This document shows, piece after piece, positions 24,050-61,677 of a DNA stretch of 64,000 bases (positions within the stretch are counted from its first letter, which is position 1; the number at the start of each line of letters is the position of its first letter). The stretch is from Myxococcales bacterium (lineage in GTDB: Bacteria > Myxococcota_A > Polyangia > Nannocystales > Nannocystaceae), in assembly GCA_020633335.1 (NCBI GenBank), contig JACKDU010000002.1, positions 186,730-250,729 on the forward strand, given 5' to 3'. The notes beneath the pieces are model-generated. The model saw nothing but the letters and a program-made list of their open reading frames with translations, was not told the DNA's origin and did not search any database. A program made the position numbers and the translations under genes.

Positions 24050-24796
24050 CTAGAGGCCGTACTCCTCCATCACGTCGTCAGGCAGCGTGACGTTGGCGTA
24101 GACGCTCTGGACGTCGTCGTGCTCGTCGAGGAGCGACCAGAGGCGGCCGGCCTGGTTGGCCTGCGAGCCCTCGAGCGCGAGCTCGTTCTCCGGCTTGCAG
24201 AGGTAGCGGACCTCGGCGTTGGGCTCGAGGTCGCTGAGCTCCCCCTCGACCGCGGCGAAGTCGGTGGGCTCGCAGATCACCCCCCAGGAGGCGTCCCAGT
24301 CCTGGATGTCCTCGGCGCCGGCGCCGAGCGCCCGCTCCATCAGGGCCTCCTCGCCGATCTTCTCCTTGTCGATCTCGATCACGCCCTTGTAGTCGAACAT
24401 CCAGGCGACCGAGCCGCCGGCGGTCATCTCGCCGCCGTTCTTGCCGAAGAGGGAGCGGATCTCCGCGACCGTGCGGTTCTTGTTGTCGGTGATCCCGGCG
24501 ACCAGGAAGCAGGCGCCCGCCGGCCCCCGTCCCTCGTAGAGGAAGGCCTCAAAGGTGACGTTGCCGAGCTCGCCGGTGCCCTTCTTGATCGCCCGCTCCT
24601 GGTTGTCCTTCGGCATGTTGGCCGAACGGGCCTGGGCGAGCGCGAGGCGCAGACGGGGGTTCCCCGCCGGATCGCCGCCCCCCTCCTTGGCGGCGACCAT
24701 GATCTCACGGGCGATCTTCGTGAAGATCTTGCCCTTCTTGGCGTCGACGAGCGCCTTCTTCCGCTTGATCGTGGACCATTTGCTGTGGCCGGACAT
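24050..24796 (-). CDS. yebC: YebC/PmpR family DNA-binding transcriptional regulator
   Basis: MSGHSKWSTIKRKKALVDAKKGKIFTKIAREI is the hallmark N-terminus; classic yebC-ruvC-ruvA arrangement. Confidence 0.85.
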   Translation of the reverse strand: MSGHSKWSTIKRKKALVDAKKGKIFTKIAREIMVAAKEGGGDPAGNPRLRLALAQARSANMPKDNQERAIKKGTGELGNVTFEAFLYEGRGPAGACFLVAGITDNKNRTVAEIRSLFGKNGGEMTAGGSVAWMFDYKGVIEIDKEKIGEEALMERALGAGAEDIQDWDASWGVICEPTDFAAVEGELSDLEPNAEVRYLCKPENELALEGSQANQAGRLWSLLDEHDDVQSVYANVTLPDDVMEEYGL

Positions 24797-24857
24797 CGCC
24801 ACCGTAGGTACCACAGGGCCTCTCGCGGGAAAATGGGGTCGGGTACACTCGCCCGCC

Positions 24858-27074
24858 GTGGGCGCGGAGCGTGAGCACGGGGACTCGTCGGCGTCGCTGA
24901 TCGGCGACGCCGGCTGGCTGCCGCCGACCCCCGGCCGCGGCGCCACCCTCGGGACCTTCGTCGGGGTCTTTCGCCCCACCCTCCTGACCATCATCGGCCT
25001 GGTGATGTACCTCCGGCAGGGCTGGGTCGTCGGCAACGCCGGCCTCCTCGGCGGCCTCGCCATCCTCGGCCTGACCTTCGCGATCACCGGGGCGACCGCC
25101 CTCTCCTTCTCGGCGATCACCACCAACATCCGGATCGGCGCCGGCGGGGCGTTCGCGCTGGTCTCCCGCTCCCTCGGCCTCGAGGCCGGCGGGGCGATCG
25201 GCATCCCCCTCTTCCTCGCGCAGTCGCTCTCGGTCGCCTTCTACATGTACGGCTTCGCCGAGGGCTGGCTCTACCTCTTCCCCGACCACGAGCGCGCCTG
25301 GGTGCTCTGGGGGGTCTTCGCGGGCGGCTTCGGGCTCTCGCTGATCAGCGAGAAGCTCGCGCTCCGCTCGCAATCGATCGTGATGCTCGGGGTCGTCGTC
25401 GCCCTCGCGTCGATCTGGGGCGGGCTCTGGACGGCCCCCGAGCTCCACCGCCCCGAGCTGATCGGCGACTTCGCCGACGGCGACTTCTGGGAGCTCTTCG
25501 CGGTCTACTTCCCCGCCGGGACCGGGATCATGGTCGGCGCGAGCCTCACGGGGAAGCTCCGGGAGCCCCGCCGGAGCATCCCCCGGGGGATCCTCGGCGC
25601 CTGGGCGGTCGCGCTCGCGGTCTACCTCCTCACCTTCCTCTGGTACGCGGCCGTCGCCACCCCGGCGGAGCTCCGCGGCGATCCGCTGGTGTCGATCCAC
25701 CGCGCGGCCTGGAGCCCGGGGGTCCTCATCGGCCTGATGTCGTCGTGCTTCTCGGCGATGCTCGGCTCGGTCGTCGCCGCCCCCAACGTCCTCGCCGCCC
25801 TCGCCAGCCACCGCCTGGTCCCCTTCGCCGACCGGATCGCCAGGCAGTCGCGCTCGGGGACCGCCCGGGTCGCGGTCCTGGTCTCGGGGGCGATCGTCGC
25901 CCTGGCGATCCTCCTCGGCGACCTCAACCGGGTCGCCGGGATGATCACGATGTTCTTCCTGATCACCTACGCGACGATCAACCTGGTCGTCCTGGTCGAG
26001 CAGCGCCTCAAGCTGATCTCGTTCCGGCCGACCCTGCGGGTGCCGAAGGTGGTCCCGCTCTTCGGCGCGGCCGCCTCGGTCTTTGCGATGGTGGTCACCA
26101 ACCCGGCCTTCGGCCTCATCGCCCTCGCGGTCGTCGTCGGCCTCTACCTCTTCTTTAGCCGCCGCAACCTCGACACCCCCTGGGAGACCGTCCGCTCCGG
26201 CCTGGTGACGGCGATCGCCGACTGGGTGGCGAAGGCGAGCCAGCGGATCTCCGGGCCGCAGTACCGGGCCTGGAAGCCCGACGTGCTGATGCCGGTGGTC
26301 GCCGGCGAGTGCCTCTCACCGGCCTGCATGCTCCTCCGCGACGTCGTCTGCCCGCGCGGGAGCGTGCAGATCCTCGGGGTCTTCGCCGGCGGCGCCGCCC
26401 GCCAGCCGCCGCCCGGGATCGCCGAGCTCCTCGCCGGCCTCCACCGCGCCGACCTCCTCGCCCGCTACGCGCCGATCGAGGCGCCGGGCCTCCTGCCGGC
26501 GATCCGGGCCGCGCTCTCGGTCCTCGCCGGCGCCTTCTACCGGCCCAACGTCCTCTTCATCGACGGCAGCGGCCGCACCGAGGAGGAGATCCAGGAGCTC
26601 CTCCGCCTCGCCCGCCGCCAGGACATCGGCTTCGTCCTCCTCCTCCCGCCGGAGGGCGGGCCGGCGCCGGCGATCCAGGCGATCAACCTCTGGGTCCGCG
26701 ATCAGAGCCCGAACTGGCGCCTCGGCCTCCAGCTCGCCAACCTCGACCTCGCGCTCCTCCTCGGCCACCAGCTCCAGCGGAACTCCGGCGGCCGCCTCCG
26801 GCTGATCTCGGTGATCGCCGACGCCGAGAACCTGCCGGCCGCCCGCCACTACCTCCGGCGCATGCGCGACGAAGCCCGCCTCGACGCGAGCACGGAGATC
26901 GTCGTCGAGGAGGGCAACTTCGCGGCGCTCCAGGCCCGGGCGCCGGCGGCTGAGGTGTCGATCCTCGGGATCCCCGAGACCATCGACCTCGCCGCGCTCA
27001 CGGCGATCCAGCGCGGGATCGGCTCGACCTGCCTCTTCGTGCACGACTCGTCACTGGAGTCAGCGCTCGCCTGA
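24858..27074 (+). CDS. APC-superfamily transporter, cation-chloride cotransporter (SLC12)-like with large cytoplasmic C-terminal domain
   Basis: 12 predicted TM segments (MYLRQGWVVGNAGLLGGLAILGLTFAITGATALS...) and a ~300-aa soluble C-terminus; GTG at 24858 is the first start after the yebC overlap. Confidence 0.65.
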   Translation: MGAEREHGDSSASLIGDAGWLPPTPGRGATLGTFVGVFRPTLLTIIGLVMYLRQGWVVGNAGLLGGLAILGLTFAITGATALSFSAITTNIRIGAGGAFALVSRSLGLEAGGAIGIPLFLAQSLSVAFYMYGFAEGWLYLFPDHERAWVLWGVFAGGFGLSLISEKLALRSQSIVMLGVVVALASIWGGLWTAPELHRPELIGDFADGDFWELFAVYFPAGTGIMVGASLTGKLREPRRSIPRGILGAWAVALAVYLLTFLWYAAVATPAELRGDPLVSIHRAAWSPGVLIGLMSSCFSAMLGSVVAAPNVLAALASHRLVPFADRIARQSRSGTARVAVLVSGAIVALAILLGDLNRVAGMITMFFLITYATINLVVLVEQRLKLISFRPTLRVPKVVPLFGAAASVFAMVVTNPAFGLIALAVVVGLYLFFSRRNLDTPWETVRSGLVTAIADWVAKASQRISGPQYRAWKPDVLMPVVAGECLSPACMLLRDVVCPRGSVQILGVFAGGAARQPPPGIAELLAGLHRADLLARYAPIEAPGLLPAIRAALSVLAGAFYRPNVLFIDGSGRTEEEIQELLRLARRQDIGFVLLLPPEGGPAPAIQAINLWVRDQSPNWRLGLQLANLDLALLLGHQLQRNSGGRLRLISVIADAENLPAARHYLRRMRDEARLDASTEIVVEEGNFAALQARAPAAEVSILGIPETIDLAALTAIQRGIGSTCLFVHDSSLESALA

Positions 27075-27111
27075 GGCAGGTCGTCGCCGCCGCGAGTCCG
27101 CGGCGTGGGGG

Positions 27112-27759
27112 CTAGTTGGCCTTGGCCGAGCCCTTGACGATCTCGTAGACCTTCTTGGCGTCGTCCTCGGTGTAGGCCTGCGGCGGGGTCGAGAACGCGT
27201 CCATCGGCTTGTCGTCGTGGAACGAGTAGATGGCGCCGTCCTTCTCGACGAAGAAGTACCAGTGCGACTCGGGGGCGTACTTGATGCCGTTGTCCTCGTC
27301 GTTCATCTGGTAGGTGAAGACGAAGCCGGCGTCCTCGTCGACGATCTTCTTGCCGTCCTTGTACGAGGAGTTGCCGATCGACGACGACTCACCCCACTCG
27401 ATGCCCTCCTTGACCGAGGAGACCGCGAGGGCGCCGACGGTGATCATGTAGTGGGGGGCGATCTTGATGTCGACGCCGCCGTTGCCGTTCTTCTCGAAGG
27501 CCGCGTCCTTCGGCGCCTTGACCGTGACGTTGATCATGGGCGAGACCTCCTTGAGGTCCTTCTCGACCCAGTCGGCCTCGTTGATCGTGAGCTTCGGGAC
27601 CTCAACGGCCGGGGCCGCGTCGGCCTCCTTGGCGCCGTCGCCCTTGTCGGCGCCCTCGGCGGGGGCCTTGTCACCGGAGGCAGCGGGCTCGGAGGAGCCA
27701 CCGCAGGCCGCCAGCGCGAGCGTGAACATCGAGACGACCGTGATGTGTGTGAGCTTCAT
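27112..27759 (-). CDS. lipoprotein, function unknown (lower-GC, Lys/Asp-rich)
   Basis: lipobox LALAACGG after MKLTHITVVSMFT; composition typical of exported proteins. Confidence 0.55.
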   Translation of the reverse strand: MKLTHITVVSMFTLALAACGGSSEPAASGDKAPAEGADKGDGAKEADAAPAVEVPKLTINEADWVEKDLKEVSPMINVTVKAPKDAAFEKNGNGGVDIKIAPHYMITVGALAVSSVKEGIEWGESSSIGNSSYKDGKKIVDEDAGFVFTYQMNDEDNGIKYAPESHWYFFVEKDGAIYSFHDDKPMDAFSTPPQAYTEDDAKKVYEIVKGSAKAN

Positions 27760-27924
27760 GGCGGCGGCTTATCCCACAGGCCGCGCGCGGTGTCGAGCAT
27801 TCGGCGCGCTCCGGCGCGCCGGCGGAGATGCCAGCGTCCCGTCAGCGCGCCCCGCGCGTGAGCCGCGGCGAGGTCACTGGACCCCGCCACGGCACGAATT
27901 CTCCGCTCGCTCGCCGCCTGCGGC

Positions 27925-29934
27925 CTAGCGGCGGCGGCGGACGAGGCCGAAGAGGGCGAGCGAGAGGAGGCCGAGGAGCCCCTGCCGGCCGCCCTCCGCG
28001 TCCGCCCGGCAGCCGCAGCCGTCCTCATCGAGGACCTCGCCGCCGCTGGTCGCCGAGTCGGTGCCTGTGGTGTCGCCGGTGCTCCCCCCGCTCGCCGCGG
28101 TCGACGCGGTCGTCGCCGAGGTCGTCGCCCCGCCGGTGCCACTCGCCGAGTCCGAGGTCCCGCTCGCGTCGGTGGTCCCGCCCGTGCTCGCCCCCGTGGT
28201 CTCGCCGCCGGTCGAGACCCCGCCGGTGGTCGCGTCGGTGGTCCCGGTGCCGACGTCGGTGGTCGTCCCGTCGGTGTCGGTCGTCGTGCCGGTGGTCCCC
28301 GCCTCGATCAGGCAGGTCGCCGAGCAGCCGTCCCCGTCCTCGGTGTTGGCGTCGTCGCACTCCTCGACGCCCTCCTGGACGAAGCCGTCGCCGCAGGCCG
28401 CCGGCTGGCAGAATGAGGTGCAGGCGTCGGTGTCGACGTCGTTGCCGTCGTCGCAGCCCTCGATCCCCTCCTGGACGAAGCCGTCGCCGCAGGCCGCGAG
28501 CGCGCAGGCCGACGTGCAATCGTCGGTGTCGATGTCGTTGCCGTCATCGCAGGCCTCGACCCCGTCCTGGACGAAGCCGTCGCCGCAGGCCGCCGGCTGG
28601 CAGAGCGAGGTGCACTCGTCGGTGTCGATGTCGTTGCCGTCGTCGCAGCCCTCGAGGCCCTGGAGGATCTTGCCGTCGCCGCAGCAGCTCGGCAGCTCGA
28701 GCTTGAGGATCGCCTCGACCGCGCCGTTGCCGTCGTCGATGTCGACCTCGACGTAGACGAAGCCGTCGGTGAAGAGATCGAGGCCGGGGCCGATCCCGGA
28801 CGAGGCGTTGAAGTCGGTGACCGTGAAGTCGCCGACCCCGTCGTCGTCGACGTCGATCTCGTCGCCGGTGTGGAGGACGACCTTCGACTCGTCGATCGCC
28901 GCGGCGTCGCAGGCGTAGAAGAGGACCTCGTTGCCGCCGGTGTAGCCCCAGAGGTGGACCGCCGAGTCGATGTCCGAGATGCTCAGGGCGTTGACCGTCG
29001 CGGCGTTGAGGAGGGTGACGCCGGCGATCTGGTCGCCCTCGCGGATCTGGATCTGGCCGTTGTAGGCGATGAAGTGATCGGTCGCGCCGTCGCCGTCGGT
29101 GTCGCCGGAGAAGAGGTAGTTGCCCGCCTTGTTGATCGACGGCACCCCGAAGTTGTCCCAGTTGTCGCCGGTCCCGTTCGGCGAGGCCTCGCGGGCGACG
29201 ATCATCCCGTCGACCAGGAGCGCGCCGTCGTTGACCGTCGAGCCGGTGTCGAAGAGGACCTCGTGGATGTGGTGGCTGCCGTCGCTCGCGATCTCGTAGT
29301 CGAAGCCGACGCCGCTCGGCCGGTCGATCGCCAGGCCGCCGAAGACGTCGTCGGAGCGGAAGACGACCTCGATGTTGTTGGGGTCGGCGTCGACCGCCTT
29401 GTAGAAGACCCGCGCGACCGACGAGTTGCCGCCCTGATCGTTGAAGCCGGCGACCCAGTAGACGGTGCCGTCCGGGGTCATCGTCGGCCGGCTGTGGAAG
29501 GTGGTGACCGCGTTGGCGATCCCGGCGGCGGCCTCGGTCGCCCTGGCGATCTTGCCGCTCTGCCCCCAGACGCCGTCGGAGCCGGAGATCGACGGGCTGT
29601 AGATGAAGCCCTTCGAGCTCGCGCCCATCGTCGACTCGCCGCCCGTGAGGGTCTCGACCAGCTCATCGCTCGCCTTGAAGGCGACCCCGCCGGCGCTCCA
29701 GACGAAGGTGTCGCTCGCGCCGAGGCGGCCGGTGAAGGCGACGTCGCCGTCGCCGTCGGTGAAGGGCGAATTGATCACCTGGACGGGCTCGTTCTCGCCG
29801 GGCGGCACGTCGCCGACCTTGACGACGACCGACGCCGGGACGATCGCAGCGTCCGCGCGCAGACCGAGGAGAGCGACCGCGGCCGCCGAGGAGAGGGTGA
29901 AGAAGGTGCGGGCGCCCGCCGAGGAGAAGATCAT
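27925..29934 (-). CDS. large secreted protein with tandem Myxococcus cysteine-rich repeats and MYXO-CTERM sorting signal
   Basis: signal peptide; four repeats of CGDGFVQ[DE]G[VI]E.CDDGN..DTD.CTS.C; C-terminus [31 protein letters not shown]. Confidence 0.7.
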
Positions 29935-30064
29935 GGGGCGATGCTAACAACGACCCCGCCGGCCCCAGCGCCGAAATCGCCGCCGAGGAGCGACGGCCCT
30001 GGGGCCGCGGAGCCGCCCTCAGCGCCGACAATTCACGGAGTTCTCGGGCGGCAGCCAGGGGGCC

Positions 30065-31582
30065 ATGTGCGTTACATTCCGCGCCGTGCCCGAGCTCCTC
30101 GACGCCCCCATCCACGACCTCGCCCGCAGGATCCGCGCCCGCACGCTCTCGCCGGTCGAGCTGGTGGACGCCCACATCGCCCGCATCGAGGCCGTGAACC
30201 CCCGGATCAACGCGGTGATCGCCGAGCGCTTCGCGGCCGCCCGGGAGGAGGCCGCCGCCGCCGAGGCGCAGGTGATGCGCACGAGCGACGCCGACGCCCT
30301 CCCGCCCCTCCTCGGGATCCCCTTCACGGCCAAGGAGTACATCGCCGCCGAGGGGATGCCGCTGAGCGGCGGGGTCTGGGCGCGGCGCCACGTCCGGGCC
30401 GAGCGCGACGCCGAGACGATCCGCCGCCTCCGCGGCGCCGGGGCGATCCTCGTCGGGATCACCAACGTCCCCGAGGGCGGCCTCTGGATGGAGACCTACA
30501 ACGCGATCTACGGGCGCACGCGCAACCCCTGGCACCTCGGGCGGACCTGCGGGGGCTCGTCGGGCGGCGACGGGGCGATCGTCGGCGCCGGCGGGGTCCC
30601 CTTCGCCCTCGGGGCCGACGTCGGCGGGTCGATCCGGATCCCGGCCGCCTTCTGCGGCGCGGTCGGTCACAAGCCCACCGGGCGGATGGTCCCCAACACC
30701 GGCTTCTGGCCCGAGGCCGAGGGCGAGCTCTCGGCCTACCTCGTCTGCGGCCCGATCGCCCGCTCGAGCCGCGACCTGATGCCGATCCTCAAGGTGCTCG
30801 CCGGCCCCGACGGCGCCGATCCGGTCTGCCGCCCCTGGACCCTCGGCGATCCCGACGCGGTCGATCTCCGCGACGTCGTCGTCTTCCCGGTCGAGAGCAA
30901 CGGCGCGACCCGGGTCCGCCGGGTGATGCGCCAGGGGGTCCAGCGGGCCGCCGACGCGCTCGCGGCCCGGGGCGCGACGATCGCCGAGCTGAAGGCGCCG
31001 GCGATGAAGCGGGCCTTCATGATCTGGTCGTCGATGATGACCGCCGCCGGCGGCCCGAGCTACGGCGAGATCCTCGGCGGCGACGCGCCGATGCGGCCGG
31101 GGCGCGAGCTCCTCAAGATGCTCGTCGGCCGCTCGCGCCACACCTTCCCGGCGGCGATGGTCGTCGCCGCCGAGCGGGTGACCAAGCTGATCCCGGCGCG
31201 GGTCGACGCGATGGTCGCCGCCGGCAAGGCGCTCCAGCGCGAGCTTGAGGACATCCTCGGCCCGAACGGCATCCTCCTCCACCCGCCCTACAGCCGACCG
31301 GCGCCCCGCCACTACGGGCCGATGCTCACGCCCTTCGACTTCGTCTGCACCGGACTCTTTAATGTGCTCGAGTTCCCGTCGACGACGGTGCCGGTGGCCT
31401 TTGATCGCCACGGGCTGCCGGTCGGCGTCCAGGTGATCGGCCGCCGCGGCGACGATCACCTGACGATCGCGGTCGCCGGCGCCCTCGAGGAGGCGTTTGG
31501 GGGCTGGCGGCGGGCCGAGCCGGCGGCGCGCGGGCGAGGGGCGGCCGCCGACGCGGCCGCGGCCGCGAGCCCGGCGGCGTAG
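30065..31582 (+). CDS. amidase-signature family enzyme (GatA-like amidase)
   Basis: GGSSGGDGAIVGAG and GADVGGSIRIPAAFCG are the Ser-cisSer-Lys amidase signature. Confidence 0.8.
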   Translation: MCVTFRAVPELLDAPIHDLARRIRARTLSPVELVDAHIARIEAVNPRINAVIAERFAAAREEAAAAEAQVMRTSDADALPPLLGIPFTAKEYIAAEGMPLSGGVWARRHVRAERDAETIRRLRGAGAILVGITNVPEGGLWMETYNAIYGRTRNPWHLGRTCGGSSGGDGAIVGAGGVPFALGADVGGSIRIPAAFCGAVGHKPTGRMVPNTGFWPEAEGELSAYLVCGPIARSSRDLMPILKVLAGPDGADPVCRPWTLGDPDAVDLRDVVVFPVESNGATRVRRVMRQGVQRAADALAARGATIAELKAPAMKRAFMIWSSMMTAAGGPSYGEILGGDAPMRPGRELLKMLVGRSRHTFPAAMVVAAERVTKLIPARVDAMVAAGKALQRELEDILGPNGILLHPPYSRPAPRHYGPMLTPFDFVCTGLFNVLEFPSTTVPVAFDRHGLPVGVQVIGRRGDDHLTIAVAGALEEAFGGWRRAEPAARGRGAAADAAAAASPAA

Positions 31583-31635
31583 GCCGATCGCGGGCCGGGG
31601 CCGAGGGTCGAGGCTCGAGGCTCGATTGATCGGTC

Positions 31636-31716
31636 TGCGGATCTCACCGGGACGATCTCTCGAGCGCGTCGATCGGAGCCGATCTCGGTGAGCCGATCTC
31701 ACTGACTCGATCTCGA
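31636..31716. repeat. array of five to six CGATCTC direct repeats at ~14-bp period in the intergenic region upstream of the SAH-repeat gene
   Basis: gatctc at 31640, 31654, 31681, 31695 and 31709, with a degenerate gatcgg at 31671; followed by an aattttt stretch. Confidence 0.4.
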
Positions 31717-31970
31717 ATTTTTCGGGACCAGGAGGTCGTCGCCTCGTGATCGGCGGATCGCCACGTCGATCGTCGGCGCCTCAGCGAAGGCACGTCGCCC
31801 GGAAAAAGGCAAAAATTTGGCCCGCTCCCGGGGACGTGGCATCTCGGTCAGGTGGTGATCGACGTCCCCTCCCAGGGCGTCGGCGGAGGTCGCCGCTGCG
31901 ATCTCCGACAACGGTGCGTCACCGCGAAAGAACAACCCCCCCGATCTGCCTCCGCTACACTGTGCCCGCC

Positions 31971-34900
31971 ATGGCGATACGCCCACTTCCCGGTGAGCTG
32001 CTTGCGAGCTTGCCCCGGGGGATTGATCAATCCCAGATCACCCACCACGTCCCGCTGCGCGGCGGCCCTGACGGGCTCCTCGGCGAGACCCATCTCCTCG
32101 TCTTCGACGGGGAGCTCATCGTCGTCACCCGCGGCTCGTCGCGGGCGGAGTTCCGGCGCCTCGACCTCGACGCCGAGGAGCGGGCGATGCTCCTCGCCGA
32201 GGGTTGGTCGGTCCAGCTGAGCCTGCCGACCGTCGGCACGCCGACCCGCTTCGACGTCGCCTCACGCGACGTGGCGACCGTCCTGGCGCTCCTCTCGGCG
32301 GTCAAGCCGGGCCAGCGCCACGGCGACGAGGACGAGCTCGAGGTCGACCTCGAGCTCGACGAGGCCAAGCCGCGGAGGCAGAGCGTTTCCGCGCAAGGCC
32401 ATGGCTACGCGCAGACGCAGCTTGAGCGCGGCGTGCGAGAGATCGTCGCGCCGGCGCATGAGGTCGCGGCGGCGCGTGAGGCTGCTGCTCGTGAGGCCGC
32501 TGCTCGTGAGGCCGCTGCTCGGGAGGCTGCTGCTCGGGAGGCTGCTGCTCGCGAGGCTGCCGCCCGCGAGGCTGCTGCTCGTGAGGCTGCTGCTCGGGAG
32601 GCTGCTGCCCGCGAGGCTGCTGCTCGTGAGGCTGCTGCCCGTGAGGCTGCTGCCCGCGAGGCTGCTGCCCGCGAGGCTGCTGCCCGTGAGGCTGCTGCTC
32701 GTGAGGCTGCTGCCCGCGAGGCTGCTGCCCGTGAGGCTGCTGCTCGTGAGGCTGCTGCCCGCGAGGCTGCTGCCCGTGAGGCTGCTGCCCGTGAGGCTGC
32801 TGCTCGCGAGGCTGCTGCCCGTGAGGCTGCTCGCGAGGCCGCCGCCCGTGAGGCCGCCGCCCGTGAGGCCGCCGCCCGTGAGGCCGCCGCCCGTGAGGCC
32901 GCCGCCCGTGAGGCCGCCGCCCGTGAGGCCGCCGCCCGTCGCGAGGCCGCTGCTCGTGAGGCCGCTGCCCCGCGAGGCCGCCGCTCGTGAGGCCGCCGCT
33001 CGTCGCGAGGCCGCTGCCCGCGAGGCGGCGGCTACCCGTGAGGCCGCTGCCCGCGAGGCCGCCCGCGAAACCGCCGCTCGTGAAGCTCGCGAGCCTCGCC
33101 GCCCGCGAGGCGGCGATCCGTGAGGCCCGCGAGGCCGCCGCCCGCGAGGCCTCGATCCGTGAGGCCCGCGAGGCCGCCGCCCGCGAGGCCGCCGCACGCG
33201 AAGCCGCCGCCCGCGAGGCCGCCGCCCGCGAGGCGCTCGCCGCCGCGATCAACGCCCCCGCGGACGCCTGGCGCGCGCCGACCAGCCTCCGCGACGCCTT
33301 CGCGCGCCAGCAGGAGGACGAGCAGGCGACCGACGAGTCGCCGGCCGACACCGCGATCGGCAACCGCGACCTCCACGCTCTCGCCACCTCCTTCGCCGCC
33401 GGCGCCCCCTCGCCCGCGGCCCGGCGTCGCCCCGCGCCCGAGGCCACGCCGCCCGGACGTCAGCTGGACGCCGACGAGGCCTCCCTCTCGATCGAGCTCG
33501 ATGAGGTCTTCGGCGCGCTCGACGAGTCGCCCGCCCTCGCCTCCGCGATGCCAACTCCGGTGGTCGTGACCCCCGTCGCCCCGCCGCCGCCGACGCTCGT
33601 CACCCCCATGAGCGAGGCCGACACGCCCAGCGTCACCCGACGCGGCGGCGCCCTCCGCTTCAACTTCGACGCGATCCCGGAGCCCGTGGCCCCGCCCGCG
33701 CCCGCGCCCGCGATCCACACGGCGCCCTCCCCCGCCCCGGTGATCACGCCCGAGCCCTCGGCGCCGACCCTCCGGCGTCGCACCCGGCCCGACTACGACG
33801 GCCGCGGCGCCCTCTTCGGCGACGTGCACGACGACGCGGAGCAGAGCGGCAACATCGCCCTCGCCAACTTCTTCGACGCCCACGTGCCGGCGCCGCAGGA
33901 GGACGACGTCCCCCGCCCGCGTCGGATCGTCCCGGCGACCGAGCCCGAGCTCCCGCGGGTGACGCCGACGCCGGCCGCGGTCCTCGCCCCGGAGCTCCTC
34001 GCCGCGCCCGCGCCGACGCTAGCGACCCCGGTGGCGCCGGCGCTCACGCACGAGGCCCCGTCCCTCTCCGCCGCCGCGACGCCGACCTTCGAGGTGCCCC
34101 GTCACGACGCGCCCGCGCCCTCCCTCACCGCCTTCGAGGCCCCCGCGGCCGCCGCCTCGCTCCTCCGCGAGGAGGCGCCGCACTACAGCGCGGCCCTCGA
34201 GACCGCGCCGGAGGACGCGGCCGATCCCTTCGACGGCCTCCTCGACGAGGCGCCCGCGAACCTCGATCTCGAGGCGCCAGTCGCCGCCGCCGCGGACGAG
34301 CTCGAGACCGTCGATGAGACCCCGCGCCGGAGCGCCACGCCACGCCCGAACCGCCGCCTGATCCCCTCCAAGTGGGCCCAGGAGACGGCCTCCGCCGCGG
34401 CCTCGGTGGCCGCGAGCGCGGCCTCGGCGACGGCGTCCGCCGCCTCCGCCGCGGTCGGCCGCGCCCGCACCGCGGCCTCGCGGATGCTCGATCGCCAGCG
34501 CGACCGCCAGCGCTCCCGCGTCGGCCACCCCCGCCGCAACCGCCGACGCGGTGGCGTCAGCGCGCTCCGCCCGAGCTGGACCGTCGGCGCCGCCCTGATG
34601 GTCGCCGCCCTCCTGATCTACTGGGCGCTCCCCGGCACCGACGAGGTCGCGTCCACGGTCGAGGCCCCGGTCGCCGGCAGCCAGGTCGCCGCCCCCCTCG
34701 CCGAGCTCGCCAACGAGATCCGCCTCAGCCAGCGCGACGCGGCGATCCCGGCCTCGGCCGGTCCGGGCGCGACCCGCTCGCTCCCCGGCGAGGCCGACGA
34801 CGACGTGGTGATCGACGACGAAGCCGACGCCGACGCGCCCCCCTCGGGCTCCGGCGACGCCACCCCGACGAAGGCCAAGGCCGACCGCGACTTCTACGGG

Positions 34901-35161
34901 ATCGCCACCCTGACCGCGAGCTCACCGCAGCCCGAGCGCATGGCCCTCCGCGAGTGTCGCCCGCTCGCCGAGCGGGGCACCGAGATCCGGGTCAAGGTCG
35001 AGATCGACGAGCGCAGCGGCACCGTCCCCGAGGTCTGGGTCGGCGACTCGTCGATGGATCGCCAGCTCCGCCACTGCATCGTCCGCCAGTTCAAGAAGGC
35101 GACCTTCGAGCCCAAGGCGAAGGGCAAGCTGGTCAAGCAGCGGCTCAAGCTCCACTTCTAG
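31971..35161 (+). CDS. large protein with a globular N-domain, ~50x (REAAA) single-alpha-helix-type repeat, Pro/Ala-rich region, TM helix and TonB-C-like C-terminal domain; reading frame interrupted by two +1 shifts inside the repeat
   Basis: ATG at 31971 (MAIRPLPGELL); the REAAA reading frame moves from frame 0 to frame 1 (at ~32975, an extra C in gctgccccgcgag) and to frame 2 (at ~33090); C-terminus RGTEIRVKVEIDERSGTVPEVWVGDSSMDRQLRHCIVRQFKKATFEP resembles a TonB C-terminal domain. Confidence 0.5.
32470..33240 (+). repeat. ~51 tandem copies of a 15-bp unit (cgtgaggctgctgct and variants) encoding (AREAA)n
   Basis: perfect 15-nt periodicity visible across 32470-33240, with synonymous third-position variants. 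Confidence 0.85.
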
Positions 35162-35347
35162 CCGGCGACCGACGCCGGTCCGCGAACGCGCGGCGCGGGG
35201 CTCTCCCGGGCCGCGCGCGTCGTTGGTGCCTCTGGACCCCGCCCCGCTCCCCCAGATCGCCCGCGGGGGCGCAGATCGTCCGGCGCCCGCCCGCGTTGAC
35301 GGCCCTGCGCGCGCCCCCCGGCGCCGATCGAGTAGGATGACCGCCGC

Positions 35348-38300
35348 ATGAAGGCCCTCCTCATGGCCGTGCTCGCCCTCGCCCCGCCGGGCGGCACCGT
35401 CGATCTCGACGGGCCGCGCTGGCGAGAGCTCCACGAGGGGGCGAGCGCGCCGGAGGTCGAGCTCCCCGGGCCCTTCGTCGCCGAGCGCGACGTCAAGGTC
35501 GAGCGCGAGGGCGAGGGGCTCCGCGTCCGCGGCCGCTGGACGATCCGCGCGCTCCGCCCCGGCTGGTTCATGGGCGATCTCCTGGGGCCCGGCGCCGAGG
35601 TCCGCAAGGCGACCTGGAACGGCCAGCCCGCGGCGATCGACCGCGCCGGCGACCTGACGCTCGTCGCCGGCTACGTCCGCGGCGACGTGACCCTCGAGGT
35701 CGAGGCCTTCATCGACCACGACCCCGGCGAGGGCCCGGTGACCCTGAGCCTCCTGCCGGCGATCCGCGGCCGCGTCGACCTCCCGCCGGCGGCCGACGAC
35801 GCCCGCTACCAGGTCCACGATCCCGGCGATCCCGAGGCGGTGATCCCCCGCGACGGCGACCGGATCCTCTCCGGCGCCGCCCGCCTCGAGCTCCGCCAGG
35901 CGCCCCGCCAGAGCGCCGAGACCGGCACCCTGGTGACCGCGACCACGGCGATCGGCGTGACCGTCGGCGACGCCGAGGCCCGCGGCCGCGCCCACGTCAC
36001 CTGGGCGCTCCGCCGCGGCAGCCTCGATCGGGTGAGCGTCCGCGCCGAGGGCCTCGGCGACGATCTCGAGATCACCGGCGCCGGGATCCGCGAGTGGCGG
36101 CGGAGCGGCGATCGGATCGAGATCGAGCTCCAGGCCCCGGTGAGCGATCGCGTCGACCTCACCTTCGCCTGGTCGAGCGCCCTCTCCAAGGCCGCCGAGT
36201 CCTCCCTGACGATCCCCCGGATCGAGCCCCAGGGCGTCTTCCGCGGCTCGCAGGCGCTCCAGGTCGCCCGCGACGGCGAGATCGAGGTGATCCCCGAGGT
36301 CGGCGAGTGGACCGCGGTCGCCAGCGCTGACCTCCCGGAGTGGGCCCACGGCCTCGTCGAGGGGACCCCGACCGCGGCCTACACCGCCGCCGAGCCCCGC
36401 GGCGGCCGCCTCTCGCTCCTCCGCTTCGTCCCGGTCGAGGGCCCGCCGGTGGTCGTCGACGTCGCCGGGATCACGATCGCCGCCAGCCGCGAGGGTCGGG
36501 TGCTGATGCGCGCCCACTACGAGGTGCGCAACGAGCGGGCCGCCCACCTCCGGATCACCCCGCCGCCGGGGATGAAGATCCTCGGGGCGCGGGTCGCCGG
36601 CGAGACCGCCCTCCCCGCCCGCGGACCCGACGGCGCCTGGCTGATCCCGCTCAAGCGCTCGATCGAGACGGTCAAGGGCGCGCTCTCCTTCGCGGTCGAG
36701 GTCACCCTCCTCGGCGACGGCGACGCGTGGAAGCGCCGAGAGCGGCGGCAGCTCCCGCTCCCGCGGGTCAGCGCCCCGGTCGCGGTCACCCGCCTCACCC
36801 TCCACCTCCCGCCGGGCTACACCTCGCGCCTCGATCCCGGCGACGGCGACGTCGTCGGCGAGTTCACCCGCGGCGAGGGGATCACCTACGGGATGGCGAT
36901 CGGCGAGGTCGGGGTCGCCGAGGCCGATGAGCGCTTCCAGTCCGCCGTCGGCCGCTGGCTGGCCAACGACTTCGAGGGCGCCCAGGCCGAGCTCGACGCG
37001 CTCCGGTCGATGGGCGCGTCGAACGAGAACATCGAGCGCCTCCAGGCCAACCTCGACGTGATCGGCGGCAAGCAGGGCGGCGGCTCGTCCTCGGGCGGCG
37101 ACGCGGCGGCCGAGCGGCGGATCCGCGAGCAGGCCAAGGCCCGCGCGAGCGCCGACATCCAGGCCCAGTCCGACCTCAAGAGCAAGGCCGAGGCGTACCA
37201 GCAGGCCGGCGAGTACGACAAGGCCGAGGCCGAGTACGAGAAGGCGATGGAGATCGGCGACCGCCTCGCGCTCCTCGAGCAGGAGGAGTCGGTCGAGCAG
37301 CAGCGGGCCAACGAGGATCTGGCCCGCCAGTACAAGTCGGTCAAGGAGACCAAGGCCCGGCGGGCGTCGAGCTTCGGCAGGAAGGCGGAGCCCAAGAAGA
37401 AGCGGGGCAAGAAGGACGTCTACGCCAGCGCCGGCGAGGCCGAGTGGGACGTCGACGCGGCCGTCGAGCTGCCCGCAGGCGGCGAAGGCGACGCGAGCAT
37501 CGGCGGCTTCGCCAAGACGCCCGCGGCCGACCCGACGGGCAACGTCGTCTACAGGGACAAGAGCGCCGACGGCGTCGGCACCGAGAGCGGGGGCGGCGGG
37601 GGCGGCGGCGCGGGGACGGTGCTCTACGACTTCGAGGACGATGACGTCGAGGGCGAGCTCCTCCGCCCCGACGGCGCCGATCTCTCGAGCCGCGGCCGCA
37701 ACCGCGCCAGCGGGCTCACGACGATGAACGGGCCCGGCCTCGGCAAGGTCGGCGCCCTGGCCGGAGAGACAGGTCGGGAGACGCCGGAGGAGCCGAACGC
37801 CCAGACGACCCCGGGCTCCACGGACAGCGGGTCGGTCCGCGTCATCGGCAGCAACGCCCCCGAGTCGGCCTACACGGTCGACGGCGCCAACATCAATTCG
37901 ACGGCGACCACGACCACCGCGCGGGTGTCGATGGAGGAGGCGAAGCGGCTCCCGGTCGGCGCAGGGAGCTCGCGCGATTTCACGGCGGTCGTCGACGTGG
38001 TGCCCGGCACCTACAATCGCAACGGCTCGCTCTTCGGGCCGACCGAGCCGCCGCGGATGGCGACCGGCGGCATCGAGCCGCGCTGGCGCCTGCGGCAGGA
38101 TGCGCCCGAGCCCGAGCCGATCGACCAGCCCCCGCCCGAGCCCGAGCCCACCCCCGAGCCGGTCGCCGAGATGCCCGCGCCCGCGCCCGAGGTCCGGCTC
38201 GCCGGCATCAGCGGCGGCCTCGAGGCCGAGCCGGCCACCCGCCGGAGCCGCGGCGGCCGGATCCGTCGCGGTGGGCGAGGTCGCGAGCGCAACAGCGTCG

Positions 38301-38860
38301 CCTACGGCAGCGTTGGCGGCGGCGGCGGCGGCGGGATGAAGAAGTCCGCCTCCGTCCGCCCCAAGCCGAGCTACGGCCCCCCGCCGCCCCCCGCCGCGCC
38401 TCCCCCGGTCCAGGCCGTCGATCAACCAACCGACGCGACGGTCACCACCAAGGTGTCGATGGACGAGGCGAAGAACATCCCGGTCGGCGGGAGCAGGCGC
38501 GACTTCACCGCGGTCGTCGATCTCGCGCCGACGGCGAGCGCCGACGCCGGAGCGCCGCCGCCCGACACCGACGGCGACGGGCTCGTCGACGAGATCGACG
38601 TCATCTACGAATTCCCCGAAGACATGAACGGCTTCGAGGACGAAGACGGCACGCCCGAGCCCCTCGAAGAGGACGGCCGCGGCGGCCTCGACCGCCTCGC
38701 CGCCCCCAAGGTCACCGCCTCCGCGATGTCCGTGGTGATCCCCGCGGCCGGCGAGGCGGTCCTCTACCAGCACCTCCTCCTCGCGGCCGAGAGCGCCTAC
38801 GCGATCGAGATCGCCGCCCGCGAGCCCCTCCTCCAGAAGAGACGAAGAAGACGCCGATGA
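35348..38860 (+). CDS. large secreted protein (1170 aa) with N-terminal beta-rich region, coiled-coil/acidic region and internal RDFTAVVD repeats; paralog of the downstream gene
   Basis: signal peptide MKALLMAVLALAPPGG; segments alignable to 38857..40698 (e.g. RVLMRAHYEVRNERAAHLRITPPPG vs RITSVRYQIRNNRRQFLRVALPAG); GGAtga ribosome-binding site; the antisense 1322-aa ORF is junk. Confidence 0.6.
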   Translation: MKALLMAVLALAPPGGTVDLDGPRWRELHEGASAPEVELPGPFVAERDVKVEREGEGLRVRGRWTIRALRPGWFMGDLLGPGAEVRKATWNGQPAAIDRAGDLTLVAGYVRGDVTLEVEAFIDHDPGEGPVTLSLLPAIRGRVDLPPAADDARYQVHDPGDPEAVIPRDGDRILSGAARLELRQAPRQSAETGTLVTATTAIGVTVGDAEARGRAHVTWALRRGSLDRVSVRAEGLGDDLEITGAGIREWRRSGDRIEIELQAPVSDRVDLTFAWSSALSKAAESSLTIPRIEPQGVFRGSQALQVARDGEIEVIPEVGEWTAVASADLPEWAHGLVEGTPTAAYTAAEPRGGRLSLLRFVPVEGPPVVVDVAGITIAASREGRVLMRAHYEVRNERAAHLRITPPPGMKILGARVAGETALPARGPDGAWLIPLKRSIETVKGALSFAVEVTLLGDGDAWKRRERRQLPLPRVSAPVAVTRLTLHLPPGYTSRLDPGDGDVVGEFTRGEGITYGMAIGEVGVAEADERFQSAVGRWLANDFEGAQAELDALRSMGASNENIERLQANLDVIGGKQGGGSSSGGDAAAERRIREQAKARASADIQAQSDLKSKAEAYQQAGEYDKAEAEYEKAMEIGDRLALLEQEESVEQQRANEDLARQYKSVKETKARRASSFGRKAEPKKKRGKKDVYASAGEAEWDVDAAVELPAGGEGDASIGGFAKTPAADPTGNVVYRDKSADGVGTESGGGGGGGAGTVLYDFEDDDVEGELLRPDGADLSSRGRNRASGLTTMNGPGLGKVGALAGETGRETPEEPNAQTTPGSTDSGSVRVIGSNAPESAYTVDGANINSTATTTTARVSMEEAKRLPVGAGSSRDFTAVVDVVPGTYNRNGSLFGPTEPPRMATGGIEPRWRLRQDAPEPEPIDQPPPEPEPTPEPVAEMPAPAPEVRLAGISGGLEAEPATRRSRGGRIRRGGRGRERNSVAYGSVGGGGGGGMKKSASVRPKPSYGPPPPPAAPPPVQAVDQPTDATVTTKVSMDEAKNIPVGGSRRDFTAVVDLAPTASADAGAPPPDTDGDGLVDEIDVIYEFPEDMNGFEDEDGTPEPLEEDGRGGLDRLAAPKVTASAMSVVIPAAGEAVLYQHLLLAAESAYAIEIAAREPLLQKRRRRRR

Positions 38861-40698
38861 CCAAGCCAAGCCTCGCCCTCGCCCTCGCACTCGCCCTCCT
38901 CGCCCCCGCCCGCCCGGCCTCCGCCGCCGACGAGCCCGAGCGGGTGGTGATGAAGCTCGACGACTTCCTCCGCCTCTACGAGGCCAACAAGGCGCTCGCC
39001 ACCGCCGAGAAGGCGCCCCGCGATCACGCGATCGCCTCCGCCCGCTACCAGGGCGAGGTCCTGGTCGCCGAGGGCGATCCGACCTCCGCGGTCTTCACCG
39101 CGAAGATGCGGATCGAGAACCTCAAGAAGGACGGCTGGGCGCGGGTGCCGATCCTGCCGGCGACCGTCGCCCTCCAGTCGGCGAAGATCGGCAACGCCGA
39201 GGCCGCGGTGGTGATCGAGAACGACTACTACACCCTGATCACCAAGCAGCAGGGCGCCTTCGATCTCTCCCTCTCCTTCGCCGCCGGGATCACCACCACC
39301 GCCGGCAAGAGCAACGTCGGCTTCGAGCTGGTCCCCTCGGGCGCGACCAGCGTCTCGCTCGCGGTCCCGGTCGCCGACGACCTCGACTTCACGGTCCCCG
39401 GCGCCAAGCTCAAGTCCGACAAGGTCGAGGGCGGCAAGCGGATCGTCGAGGCGACCCTGCCGGCGACCGGCTCCCTGGTGATCGAGTGGCAGCGCGAGAT
39501 CCCCGAGGCCGCCAAGCAGCAGTCGCGGGTCTACGCCGAGGTCTACACCCTGGTCAGCCTCGGTGAGGGGCTCCTGCGGGCGACCGCCTCGGTCTCCTAC
39601 ACGATCCTCTTCGCCGGCCAGTCGGAGCTCCGCCTCAAGGTCCCCAAGGGGATGACGATCCTCTCGGTCACCGGCAACGGCATCCGCGACTGGAAGCTCG
39701 AGGGCGAGGAGCTCAAGGTCGCGCTCAACTACGCCGCCGAGGGCTCCTACAGCCTCGCGGTCGAGCTCGAGCAGGTGATCGGCGAGGGCTCCAAGAAGAT
39801 CGCCGCGCCGATCGTCGTCCCCCAGGGGGTCGAGCGGGCGAAGGGCTACGTCGGCGTCGAGTCGCGGGGCAACCTCGAGATCTCGGCCGGCGAGGTCAAG
39901 GGCGCGACCACCGTCGACGTCCGCTCGCTGCCGGCGGCGATCCTCGGGATCACCAGCCAGCCGGTGCTCCTCGGCTACAAGTACCTCGGCGCCGACGCGC
40001 AGGTCCCCCTCGAGGTCGCCGAGCACGAGGACATCGACGTCCTGGTGACGATCCTCGACCAGATCCGCGCGCGGACGATGTGGACCCCGGAGGGCCGGCG
40101 GATCACCTCGGTGCGCTACCAGATCCGCAACAACCGCCGGCAGTTCCTCCGCGTCGCCCTACCCGCCGGCGCCGAGCTCTGGAGCGTCTCGGTCGGCGGC
40201 CGGGCGGTCCAGCCGGCGAAGGCCGGCGACGGCCGGGTGATGATCCCGCTCCTCCGCTCGCAGACCTCGGGGGGCTCGCTCGCCGCCTTCAACGTCGAGC
40301 TCGTCTACGTCGAGAGCGGCGAGAAGACCAGCGAGGCCGGCCGCGGCACCTTCAAGGCTGAGCTCCCGCGGGCCGACGCGCCGAGCACCTACGTCGCCTG
40401 GACGGTCTACTCGCCGACCGGCACCAAGGTGAAGAAGCGGAGCTTCGACGGCTCCCTCCGCCAGGTCCGCTACCTCTCGGATCCGATCCCGGAGAACGAC
40501 GTCTACGCGATCGAGACCATGACCCCGCAGGTCGCCCAGCAGGGCGGCGCCCAGGCCGACGACGGCTCCCTCGGCGAGGGCGCGGTGCCGGTGCCGGTGA
40601 GCCTCCCGCTCCAGGGCAAGGCGACCAACTTCGAGAAGCTCCTGGCGCTCGACGAGGCGCTCTCCGTCGAGTTCCGCTACAAGGGGCTCAAGCTCTGA
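38857..40698 (+). CDS. secreted protein (613 aa), paralog of 35348..38860, possibly DUF4139/DUF4140-like
   Basis: signal peptide LALALALALLAPARPASA; ATGA overlap with the upstream gene; shared blocks with its paralog. Confidence 0.6.
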   Translation: MTKPSLALALALALLAPARPASAADEPERVVMKLDDFLRLYEANKALATAEKAPRDHAIASARYQGEVLVAEGDPTSAVFTAKMRIENLKKDGWARVPILPATVALQSAKIGNAEAAVVIENDYYTLITKQQGAFDLSLSFAAGITTTAGKSNVGFELVPSGATSVSLAVPVADDLDFTVPGAKLKSDKVEGGKRIVEATLPATGSLVIEWQREIPEAAKQQSRVYAEVYTLVSLGEGLLRATASVSYTILFAGQSELRLKVPKGMTILSVTGNGIRDWKLEGEELKVALNYAAEGSYSLAVELEQVIGEGSKKIAAPIVVPQGVERAKGYVGVESRGNLEISAGEVKGATTVDVRSLPAAILGITSQPVLLGYKYLGADAQVPLEVAEHEDIDVLVTILDQIRARTMWTPEGRRITSVRYQIRNNRRQFLRVALPAGAELWSVSVGGRAVQPAKAGDGRVMIPLLRSQTSGGSLAAFNVELVYVESGEKTSEAGRGTFKAELPRADAPSTYVAWTVYSPTGTKVKKRSFDGSLRQVRYLSDPIPENDVYAIETMTPQVAQQGGAQADDGSLGEGAVPVPVSLPLQGKATNFEKLLALDEALSVEFRYKGLKL

Positions 40699-56757: not shown

Positions 56758-57573
56758 GTGCAAGTAGTCTTTTGGGGCACGCGCGGCAGCATTCCGGTCT
56801 CCGGGCCGAAGTACGTCGAGTTCGGCGGCAACACGCCTTGCCTCCAGATCAAGCTGGCGAGCACGACCGACACGATGATCATCGACTCCGGGTCGGGGAT
56901 CCGTGAGCTCGGCCTCCAGCTGGTGCGGACCGCCGATCTCCACTCGCGCTCGATCCACCTCTTCCTGACCCACGCCCACTGGGATCACATCCAGGGCTTC
57001 CCCTTCTTCGTCCCCGCGTACGTGCCGACCTTCAAGCTCGACATCTACTGCACGAAGGACGCGAAGGCGATCCTCGAGAACCAGATGCGGACGCCCTTCT
57101 TCCCGGTCGGGCTCGACGCGATGTTCGCCAAGCGGGGCTTCCATCAGCTCACCTCCGACGCGCCGGTGACGATCGGCGAGGCCCAGGTCCGCAACATCCC
57201 GCTGCCGCACCCGCAGGAGTCGACCGCCTTCCGGATCGACGAGGGCGGCCGCTCGGTGGTCTTCGCCACCGACACCGAGCACGCGCCGGACCACCTCAAC
57301 GAGAGCCTGGCGAAGCTGGCCGAAGGGGCAGACATCCTGATCTACGACGCGCAGTACACCAGCGAGGAGTACCGCGCGGGCAAGCAGGGCTGGGGCCACT
57401 CGACGTACATGGAGGCGATCAAGCTCGCCCGCGCCGCCGGCGTCGGCCGCCTGGTCCTCTACAGCCACGACCCCGGCCACGACGACGAGATGCTCAAGGC
57501 GATCGAGTCGGCGGCCCAGCGCGAGCTGCCGGCGACGATCGCCGCGCGCGACGGCATGGTCCTCGACGTCTAG
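56758..57573 (+). CDS. MBL-fold metallo-hydrolase
   Basis: LTHAHWDHIQG (HxHxDH) and later His/Asp ligands; GTG start. Confidence 0.75.
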   Translation: MQVVFWGTRGSIPVSGPKYVEFGGNTPCLQIKLASTTDTMIIDSGSGIRELGLQLVRTADLHSRSIHLFLTHAHWDHIQGFPFFVPAYVPTFKLDIYCTKDAKAILENQMRTPFFPVGLDAMFAKRGFHQLTSDAPVTIGEAQVRNIPLPHPQESTAFRIDEGGRSVVFATDTEHAPDHLNESLAKLAEGADILIYDAQYTSEEYRAGKQGWGHSTYMEAIKLARAAGVGRLVLYSHDPGHDDEMLKAIESAAQRELPATIAARDGMVLDV

Positions 57574-58925: not shown

Positions 58926-58936
58926 GGCGGCGCTGG

Positions 58937-61651
<2,715 letters not shown>

Positions 61652-61677
61652 GGTCGAGAAAACCGGAAAAGCAAGTC

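Follow-up and report, generated by a model that had tools for sequence, protein, structure and literature searches.

Two probable consensus frameshifts and a lineage-specific REAAA repeat expansion in the cytoplasmic linker of a TonB/GltG-like membrane protein of Nannocystaceae

The 64,000-nucleotide stretch of DNA analysed here, referred to as the window and numbered from its own first base, is part of contig JACKDU010000002.1 of a Myxococcales bacterium from the family Nannocystaceae. At 31971-35161, on its forward strand, lies a locus in which a long run of 15-bp tandem repeats is crossed by two changes of reading frame. When bases 32970 and 33094 are deleted, the locus becomes one open gene of 1062 codons that extends from the ATG at 31971 to a stop codon at 35159-35161, and we consider it likely that this region codes, as a single gene, for a TonB/TolA/GltG/GltJ-type bitopic protein of the inner membrane. 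Its product begins with a globular domain, passes through the repeat, a Pro/Ala-rich segment and one transmembrane (TM) helix, and ends in a TonB-C-like domain, an outline that the original prediction, made from the sequence by itself, had drawn correctly. The features that catch the eye at this locus are most probably a real but lineage-specific expansion of a linker together with two consensus errors.

Cutting the array at every CGNGAG gives 51 units and a partial last unit, which agrees with the ~51 AREAA-coding units counted originally. Tandem Repeats Finder reports the array at period 15 as 32475-33059 (38.5 copies, score 667) and as 32478-33234 (50.3 copies, score 595), and it is by far the biggest short-period array of the window. 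In the REAAA phase its product is 56% Ala, 21% Arg and 20% Glu. Units 1 to 23 are almost the same, CG(T/C/G)GAGGCTGCTGC(T/C), and are followed by one 12-bp unit and then by seven identical CGTGAGGCCGCCGCC units, while the 3' third is degenerate, with a higher-order period of 39 bp according to Tandem Repeats Finder. The homogeneous 5' two thirds are built from GCT and CGT, codons that this 74% GC genome seldom uses, so that the GC content of third codon positions (GC3) is 0.46-0.61 there compared with ~0.95 in the flanking coding sequence. In the young part at 32475-32830 these two codons are used almost exclusively. Gene finders based on GC3 would be expected to choose the wrong frame or strand in such GC3-poor sequence, and a frame hidden Markov model run on the array did choose the wrong frame or strand at 32475-32830.

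In three-frame translation the REAAA phase occupies frame 0 to ~32969, frame 1 at 32971-33093 and frame 2 from 33095 onwards, and GC3 shows that frame 0 is coding upstream of the array (0.88-0.96) and frame 2 downstream of it (0.93-0.98). The original prediction had put two +1 shifts at ~32975 and ~33090, within a few bases of the actual sites (Table 1). At the first site frame 0 gives way to frame 1, and frame 0 then ends at the TGA at 32988-32990; at the second, frame 1 gives way to frame 2, and frame 1 then ends at the TGA at 33121-33123. Third-position composition could also suggest that the array is not coding as REAAA at all, since its 5' two thirds reach 0.97-1.00 in frame 1 against 0.46-0.61 in frame 0, and frame 1 (32401-33123) and the minus strand (32262-33197) each contain a long open reading frame (ORF), where the array would be read with 100% third-position GC as (VRLLL)n and (GSSLT)n, respectively. 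Although these frames look better by GC3, we rejected them on continuity, stop codons and orthology, and the probability that either is the coding frame is close to negligible. Only the REAAA phase is continuous with the N-terminal domain in frame 0 and, via the 16-bp units, with the C-terminal part in frame 2. The third frame of the forward strand has a TGA wherever a unit begins with CGTGAG, the in-frame indels of the array all keep REAAA, orthologs are single ORFs through the linker position, and the alternative ORFs overlap the coding sequence of the conserved N-terminal domain.

Unit lengths in the array are mostly 15 bp, and the variants (12, 18, 18, 18, 12, 9, 9 and 9 bp) are all multiples of 3, the only exceptions being two 16-bp units, each of which gives a +1 frame shift. 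It had been suggested that these shifts could reflect slipped-strand phase variation, and long tandem repeats inside ORFs are indeed classic devices of this kind, with a repeat content that here varies between lineages. However, 15 is divisible by 3, so that a change in copy number never shifts the frame and phase variation through the array is excluded, and the natural length variants of 9, 12 or 18 bp behave in the same way. The shift sites themselves are a C4 run, the longest homopolymer at either of them, and a site that is not a homopolymer; both are too short for high-frequency slippage, and the frame-altering repeat tract that defines contingency genes is absent. Moreover, the repeat belongs to the protein's cytoplasmic part and is not surface-exposed. 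For a programmed shift, neither site is like known +1 signals and two successive events would be required. A slipped-strand contingency locus or a programmed +1 site that switches a surface or trans-envelope protein is therefore extremely improbable, and any programmed or phase-variable mechanism is very unlikely.

The two +1 shifts are instead quite likely single-base consensus errors of a long-read assembly, the real gene being intact. Assembly error was among the three options offered originally and is the best supported of them, because the gene is undamaged and the other length variants are in-frame. Apart from the two extra bases, the repaired gene has no stops, a GC3 of ~0.95 and every residue that is invariant among its orthologs; the 640 codons 3' of the shifts are open, and the 41 codons between them are clean REAAA-type units in the shifted frame. 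The contig appears to be generally accurate, since 12 other syntenic genes of a relative each align to the window in one frame and the Pfam domains in other parts of the window are of full length. The 1.18-Mb contig of this metagenome-assembled genome (MAG) points to long reads, and a repeat of this type, which would be impossible to polish with short reads, could have retained single-base errors. A contig from Logan (L011, run SRR12358676) matches window positions 28626-32497 with 99.82% identity and 0 gaps, and it stops 23 bp into the array; because this contig does not cross the array, the array sequence must rest on other reads that were hardly polishable.

The alternative that both shifts are real appears unlikely; in this lineage the gene would then have lost its function recently, or have been divided into two products, a soluble 339-aa protein made of the PH-like domain and the helix and a membrane protein translated separately. 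Both shifts are present in the deposited assembly, where the C-terminal part is annotated by NCBI as a protein of its own, and the change from C3 to C4 is a plausible replication slip. In addition, the homologous region is also broken in two MAGs of another project, with ~4 (L001/L008) and 3 (L006) frame changes in the orthologous gene. On the other hand, real lesions would mean two independent +1 events 120 bp apart in a 3.2-kb gene that has otherwise no damage, with the codons between them remaining perfect REAAA-type units. One of the frame changes in the broken MAGs is located within the invariant motif SAAVGRAR|VAANRL and another in the neighbouring gene, both being found in L006, which points to assembly quality, whereas the orthologs on SPAdes-style NODE contigs (L002, L007), in a Logan assembly (L003) and on the MAG contig of L004 are intact. 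Some points do weigh against consensus error as the cause. The sequencing platform of the MAG is deduced. The shifts, each of +1, do not cancel out, and NCBI lists separate proteins, with the C-terminal part as H6711_05805 (MCB9701384.1, 693 aa) on the 1.18-Mb contig. L011 is the only independent contig near the array, a contig from the HKST-UBA11 MAG (L009) ends within the N-terminal domain, and a search for a second copy of the array from the same organism found that the exact products of the C-terminal part and of the 613-aa gene downstream are not on record. If the shifts are artefacts, this locus illustrates how real genes in long-read MAGs are split by single-base errors that remain in long arrays of short period, one 1062-aa gene having been deposited here as more than one protein.

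Other contigs used in the comparison have irregularities of their own. The last 195 bp of L009 (5979-6173) are 100% identical to window positions 31949-32143, but the amidase on the same contig is only 84% identical, which suggests a chimeric contig end in the HKST-UBA11 MAG. The frame changes in the orthologous gene of the two Nannocystaceae MAGs mentioned above fall at 6500-9500 in L006 (JAWKQY010000018.1), where the neighbouring gene that is also shifted codes for a 1026-aa homolog, and at 10400-10900 in L001/L008 (JAWKQZ010000149.1), and they lead to truncated protein predictions such as P0002 (151 aa), a fragment. In a Nannocystis co-assembly (L007, 4106-5463) the amidase ortholog lies in two frames with ~77 residues absent between them, possibly owing to a frameshift, a deletion or misassembly.

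The repaired protein can be divided into seven segments (Table 1). Its N-terminal domain is a beta-sandwich with a C-terminal helix cap and has structural similarity to PH, RanBD, PTB or EVH1 domains. The acidic stretch that follows it is found in all orthologs too, and the ~440-residue tail beyond the array contains motifs conserved among them: WRxPTxLRDAFA, LRFNFD, FFDxHVP, RRR(I/M)VP, PRPNRRL, SAAVGRAR and RRNRRR. In an AlphaFold2 (AF2) model of the C-terminal segment, the TM helix occupies model residues 11-28, in a conserved segment (AALM...IYW.LP), and the periplasmic linker, roughly 95 residues long, contains a helix at model residues 50-66, the remainder having a pLDDT <50. The C-terminal domain (CTD) has the three-dimensional fold of a TonB-CTD, is placed at the extreme C-terminus, 3' of the TM helix, and keeps conserved Cys residues. 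The repaired protein has no signal peptide at its N-terminus, and its TM helix is flanked by the Arg-rich RRNRRR on the N side and by acidic residues on the C side. By the positive-inside rule the protein would thus be oriented N-in/C-out, with the first ~865 residues in the cytoplasm and the last ~175 in the periplasm. The repeat, being N-terminal to the TM helix in a protein with no signal peptide and with RRNRRR ahead of the helix, would then be cytoplasmic and would not span the envelope, contrary to the trans-envelope ruler that was first proposed.

Table 1. Coordinates of the segments of the repaired gene, its two frameshift sites and the two genes downstream (window numbering)
Feature	Position	Strand	Basis or comparison	Remarks
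N-terminal domain, aa 1-114	31971..32312	+	PH-like fold	No Pfam or NCBIfam family
Acidic non-repetitive start of variable linker, aa 115-168	32313..32474	+	Frame 0 translation	
Array	32475..33240	+	Tandem Repeats Finder, unit list, composition	(REAAA)n, 256 aa
Frameshift site 1	32968..32971	+	CCCC vs CCC in other units	16-bp unit 32955-32970 (GCTGCC-C-CGC)
Frameshift site 2	33088..33103	+	16-bp unit CGCGAGCCTCGCCGCC	Not a homopolymer site
Pro/Ala-rich tail, probably disordered, cytoplasmic	33241..34573	+	Alignment, frame 2 GC3 0.93-0.98	~440 residues
Single TM helix, aa 868-886	34574..34630	+	AF2 helix, conserved segment	SWTVGAALMVAALLIYWAL
Periplasmic linker	34631..34879	+	Alignment, AF2	One conserved helix PLAELANEIRLSQ and an acidic low-complexity stretch
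TonB/TolA-CTD-like domain, aa 970-1062, and stop codon	34880..35161	+	Fold comparison	Two invariant Cys
1170-aa protein	35348..38860	+	Synteny in L002-L004, L006, L007, L010	Signal-peptide-like N-terminus
613-aa secreted protein	38857..40698	+	Conserved downstream neighbour	Signal peptide MTKPSLALALALALLAPARPASA

In other assemblies, five orthologs are each coded by one intact ORF and share the N-terminal domain, tail motifs, TM helix and C-domain of the window protein. Four of them (P0004, P0005, P0006 and P0007) measure 806-849 aa from a conserved MAIRP start and the fifth is an ORF in L007; the ortholog C-domains are 75-83% identical to that of the window protein. The gene order is conserved as well: a MYXO-CTERM Cys-repeat protein, coded on the opposite strand, is followed by an amidase, this gene, a gene for a 1026-1170-aa protein and a gene for a 613-619-aa protein. 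The amidase, this gene and the ~1026-1170-aa gene are kept in every locus that reaches that far, and the ~613-619-aa gene comes next wherever the contig continues. A scan of metagenomes with a C-domain profile added one locus (L010), too short to include the linker, and a word search based on the C-domain alignment gave no match; the family is small and restricted to a few Nannocystaceae-like MAGs.

None of the five intact orthologs has the REAAA repeat. The stretch from the head's end (…AVKPG) to WRxPTxLRDAFA measures 86-143 residues in them, compared with 324 in the window protein, and these ortholog linkers are rich in Pro, Ala, Thr and Gln and therefore not helical. Other repeats occupy the same position in other lineages: (AEAKL)n in L001, with a 15-bp unit in 15.7 copies, a run of EAQPRV/ETQPRV-type units in L006, (AATQP)3 in P0005, two ~14-aa repeats in P0006 and SAPVQ-type repeats in P0007 and L007. 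The head-to-tail linker thus appears, from these alignments, to be a hotspot of repeat birth under little sequence constraint, in which lineages grow repeats independently. The REAAA repeat is a young, lineage-specific expansion in this hypervariable cytoplasmic linker, because it is absent from the orthologs and its near-identical 5' units are written in codons atypical of the genome. The envelope design that had been suggested for the protein is consequently not conserved with respect to REAAA. Since orthologs manage with their 86-143 proline-rich residues, the REAAA helix is a tolerated or tunable spacer and not a calibrated ruler.

Read one residue later, REAAA becomes EAAAR, in which each Glu has an Arg at i+4. 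Single alpha-helices (SAHs) are characterized by regular opposite-charge pairs at i/i+4 and by the lack of a heptad or hendecad hydrophobic seam, and both properties are present in the sequence of the repeat. (REAAA)51 should fold as a monomeric, salt-bridged, alanine-based single alpha-helix of up to ~38 nm, which is the length of the 256 repeat residues if they are fully helical. A coiled coil is unlikely by a similar argument: a 5-residue period is coprime with 7, so that charged residues would pass through every heptad core position. The core of the right-handed 15-residue repeat, formed by positions a, d, e, h and l, covers all five residue classes and would bring charges into the core as well. 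A helix-forming pattern was also what the original prediction had seen in REAAA, and (EAAAR)2-10 has been used experimentally as a helical spacer with ~0.75 nm/unit (PMC5829913). Natural single alpha-helices are described as spacers and constant-force springs (PMC4183817, PMC5812594), and natural ER/K helices are described in abstracts as rich in E, K and R. The window repeat resembles SAH (ER/K) domains and engineered (EAAAK)n/(EAAAR)n linkers in having Glu(i)-Arg(i+4) in every unit and no hydrophobic seam. Its 256 residues far exceed the engineered linkers in length, and unlike natural ER/K helices the repeat is ~41% charged and 56% Ala. Natural ER/K helices are much more highly charged, and at the lower charge density of the repeat the stability of such a long alanine-based helix is less sure. 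That both the helicity and the monomeric state of the repeat are predictions counts against the assignment, and because the repeat is not conserved in orthologs, a requirement for its rigidity or length is not evidenced. Among the known natural counterparts of a rigid linker that protein engineers use widely, a natural and near-perfect (EAAAR)51 would be the longest.

The closest known analogues of the window protein are the Myxococcus gliding-motility proteins GltG and GltJ, which combine folded cytoplasmic domains, long disordered segments and a TM helix with a disordered segment in the periplasm and a domain like the TonB-CTD, by which they dock on periplasmic partners (PMC11761067). The architecture had been regarded as novel in the original prediction, but these proteins of the gliding machine are similarly built (PMC11761067). 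Like GltG (PglI) and GltJ (AgmX) of the M. xanthus Agl-Glt machinery, the window protein is a bitopic inner-membrane protein. Its C-domain gives a weak match to the AgmX/PglI model and keeps two conserved Cys, P0010, a distant relative that shares the N-terminal domain, carries a bona fide AgmX/PglI domain, and a weak CglF-like motif is present in a downstream neighbour. It differs in its head, which is PH-like rather than FHA as in GltG or ZnR+GYF as in GltJ, in the absence of an equivalog-model match outside the C-domain, and in its genomic location outside a glt/agl cluster, with no motor genes in the window. Neither the GltG nor the GltJ equivalog (NF033760/NF033761) matches the window protein, and no agl or glt genes were found in the window by Pfam and NCBIfam scans, the neighbours being the amidase and two uncharacterised secreted paralogs.

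With TonB and TolA the differences concern the layout of the protein. The TM helix, N-terminal in those proteins, here occupies residues 868-886 of 1062 and follows a ~860-residue cytoplasmic region; it lacks a His or SHLS-type motif. The helical repeat lies in the cytoplasm and not in the periplasm, and the protein scores under the TIGR01352 and PF03544 cut-offs. We describe the window protein as one that shares fold and layout with AgmX/PglI and TonB proteins and would 'work like' them, but it is not a member of these families and not a GltG/GltJ ortholog. Several results argue against this kinship and against motor coupling. The match to NF033768 (myxo_SS_tail) reaches 19.1 bits (E 1.1e-3) for the window protein and 15.2 for its ortholog P0006, below the 40-bit cut-off, and the C-domain obtains 14.8 bits with TIGR01352, whose cut-off is 27.1. 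No Pfam family, including PF03544, matches the protein at E<=1. A profile-profile comparison of the C-domain with the AgmX/PglI domain of P0010 is weakly positive (E 0.026). The ORFs scanned in the 64-kb window contain no ExbBD/TolQR/AglRQS-type (MotA_ExbB, ExbD) genes, but a motor could be coded elsewhere in the genome. As there is no motor gene in the window and no His in the TM helix, coupling to a motor is unsupported here.

The PH-like head also occurs in other proteins. An exhaustive HMMER search with a head-domain profile over 1.8 billion representatives (threshold E<=1e-3) returned 34 proteins, with the domain at the N-terminus in all except the second-weakest match, and all of the long relatives that were inspected have a TM segment at or near the C-terminus. 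Five relatives are ~950 residues long; TPR-model matches lie in the middle of P0018, P0019, P0031 and P0036, which were scanned, and P0033 was assigned to this group by inspection only. P0010 (392 aa), with a head, a Pro-rich linker, a TM helix and an AgmX/PglI C-terminal domain, is a miniature of the layout of the window protein, and its C-domain scores 74.3 bits with NF033768 (cut-off 40) and also matches the GltG and GltJ C-terminal models; its gene neighbourhood contains no motor genes. In the six relatives scanned no Pfam family covers the head domain, and cluster look-ups gave no informative name for any family member. An unannotated PH-like cytoplasmic head is thus found also on TPR-containing and other membrane-anchored proteins.

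In the mechanism that we propose, recent slippage of the 15-bp unit or unequal recombination would have inflated the hypervariable linker to 51 REAAA units. The REAAA helix would only lengthen and stiffen the tether and hold the PH-like head farther from the membrane-proximal tail. The head and the tail motifs may recruit a cytoplasmic partner, while the periplasmic C-domain would dock by strand addition on a periplasmic or outer-membrane partner, probably the two co-oriented secreted paralogs coded downstream. This would parallel the way in which GltG and GltJ join a cytoplasmic platform to the outer-membrane gliding complex, and by analogy the function of the gene could be GltG/GltJ-like. 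A more ambitious but doubtful reading is that the head, the motif-rich tail, the TM helix, the TonB-CTD and the two secreted paralogs form an undescribed, glt/agl-independent trans-envelope coupling module of Nannocystaceae, with the linker as a tunable spacer or constant-force spring, here a ~38-nm (EAAAR)51. In its boldest version the shifts would be real and the head-plus-helix would be released as a separate soluble protein. Current understanding is not overturned by these findings; what the locus defines is a small family of TonB-domain membrane proteins that are GltG/GltJ-like and uncharacterised.

The two proteins coded immediately downstream are paralogous, the 613-aa product having 24-26% identity to the 1026-aa homolog of the 1170-aa protein. 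The 1170-aa protein is a candidate periplasmic or outer-membrane partner of the window protein, and the 613-aa protein is a second candidate. No Pfam family was found for either of them, and PDB sequence searches were also without a match. The CglF-like motif mentioned above lies at aa 756-790 of the 1170-aa protein (NF033764, E 3e-5, under the cut-off). The same protein has two copies of the motif SxEEAKxxPVG..RDFTAVVD, which we take to recall the start of TonB-dependent receptor plug domains.

Upstream of the gene, the intergenic region 31583-31970 contains non-coding elements (notably 31676-31715, 31809-31821 and 31945-31970) that do not vary among six genomes, although the coding DNA of these genomes is only ~76-86% identical to that of the window. 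Three copies of GAGCCGATCTC are present there with a 14-bp period, together with an AT-rich GCAAAAATTTGGC followed by GACGTGGCAT. The sequence TCCGCTACACTG..CCCGC stands directly 5' of the ATG, and TACACT, 9 nt upstream, might serve as -10 element for a leaderless mRNA. Scans of 31400-35500 for Rfam families, sigma-70 promoters and terminators gave nothing meaningful.

Elsewhere in the window, comparison with L002/L004 shows extra genes at 24540-27768, between the YebC/RuvC/RuvA block and the MYXO-CTERM protein, including a cation-chloride cotransporter-like permease (24540-27074). Two further repeat arrays lie on the minus strand, both <160 bp: a 6-bp unit in 21.5 copies at 59324-59452, at the junction of a radical-SAM ORF (57573-59360) and a Ser/Thr-kinase ORF (58940-62140), and an 18/33-bp unit in ~9 copies at 61308-61466, inside the same kinase ORF.

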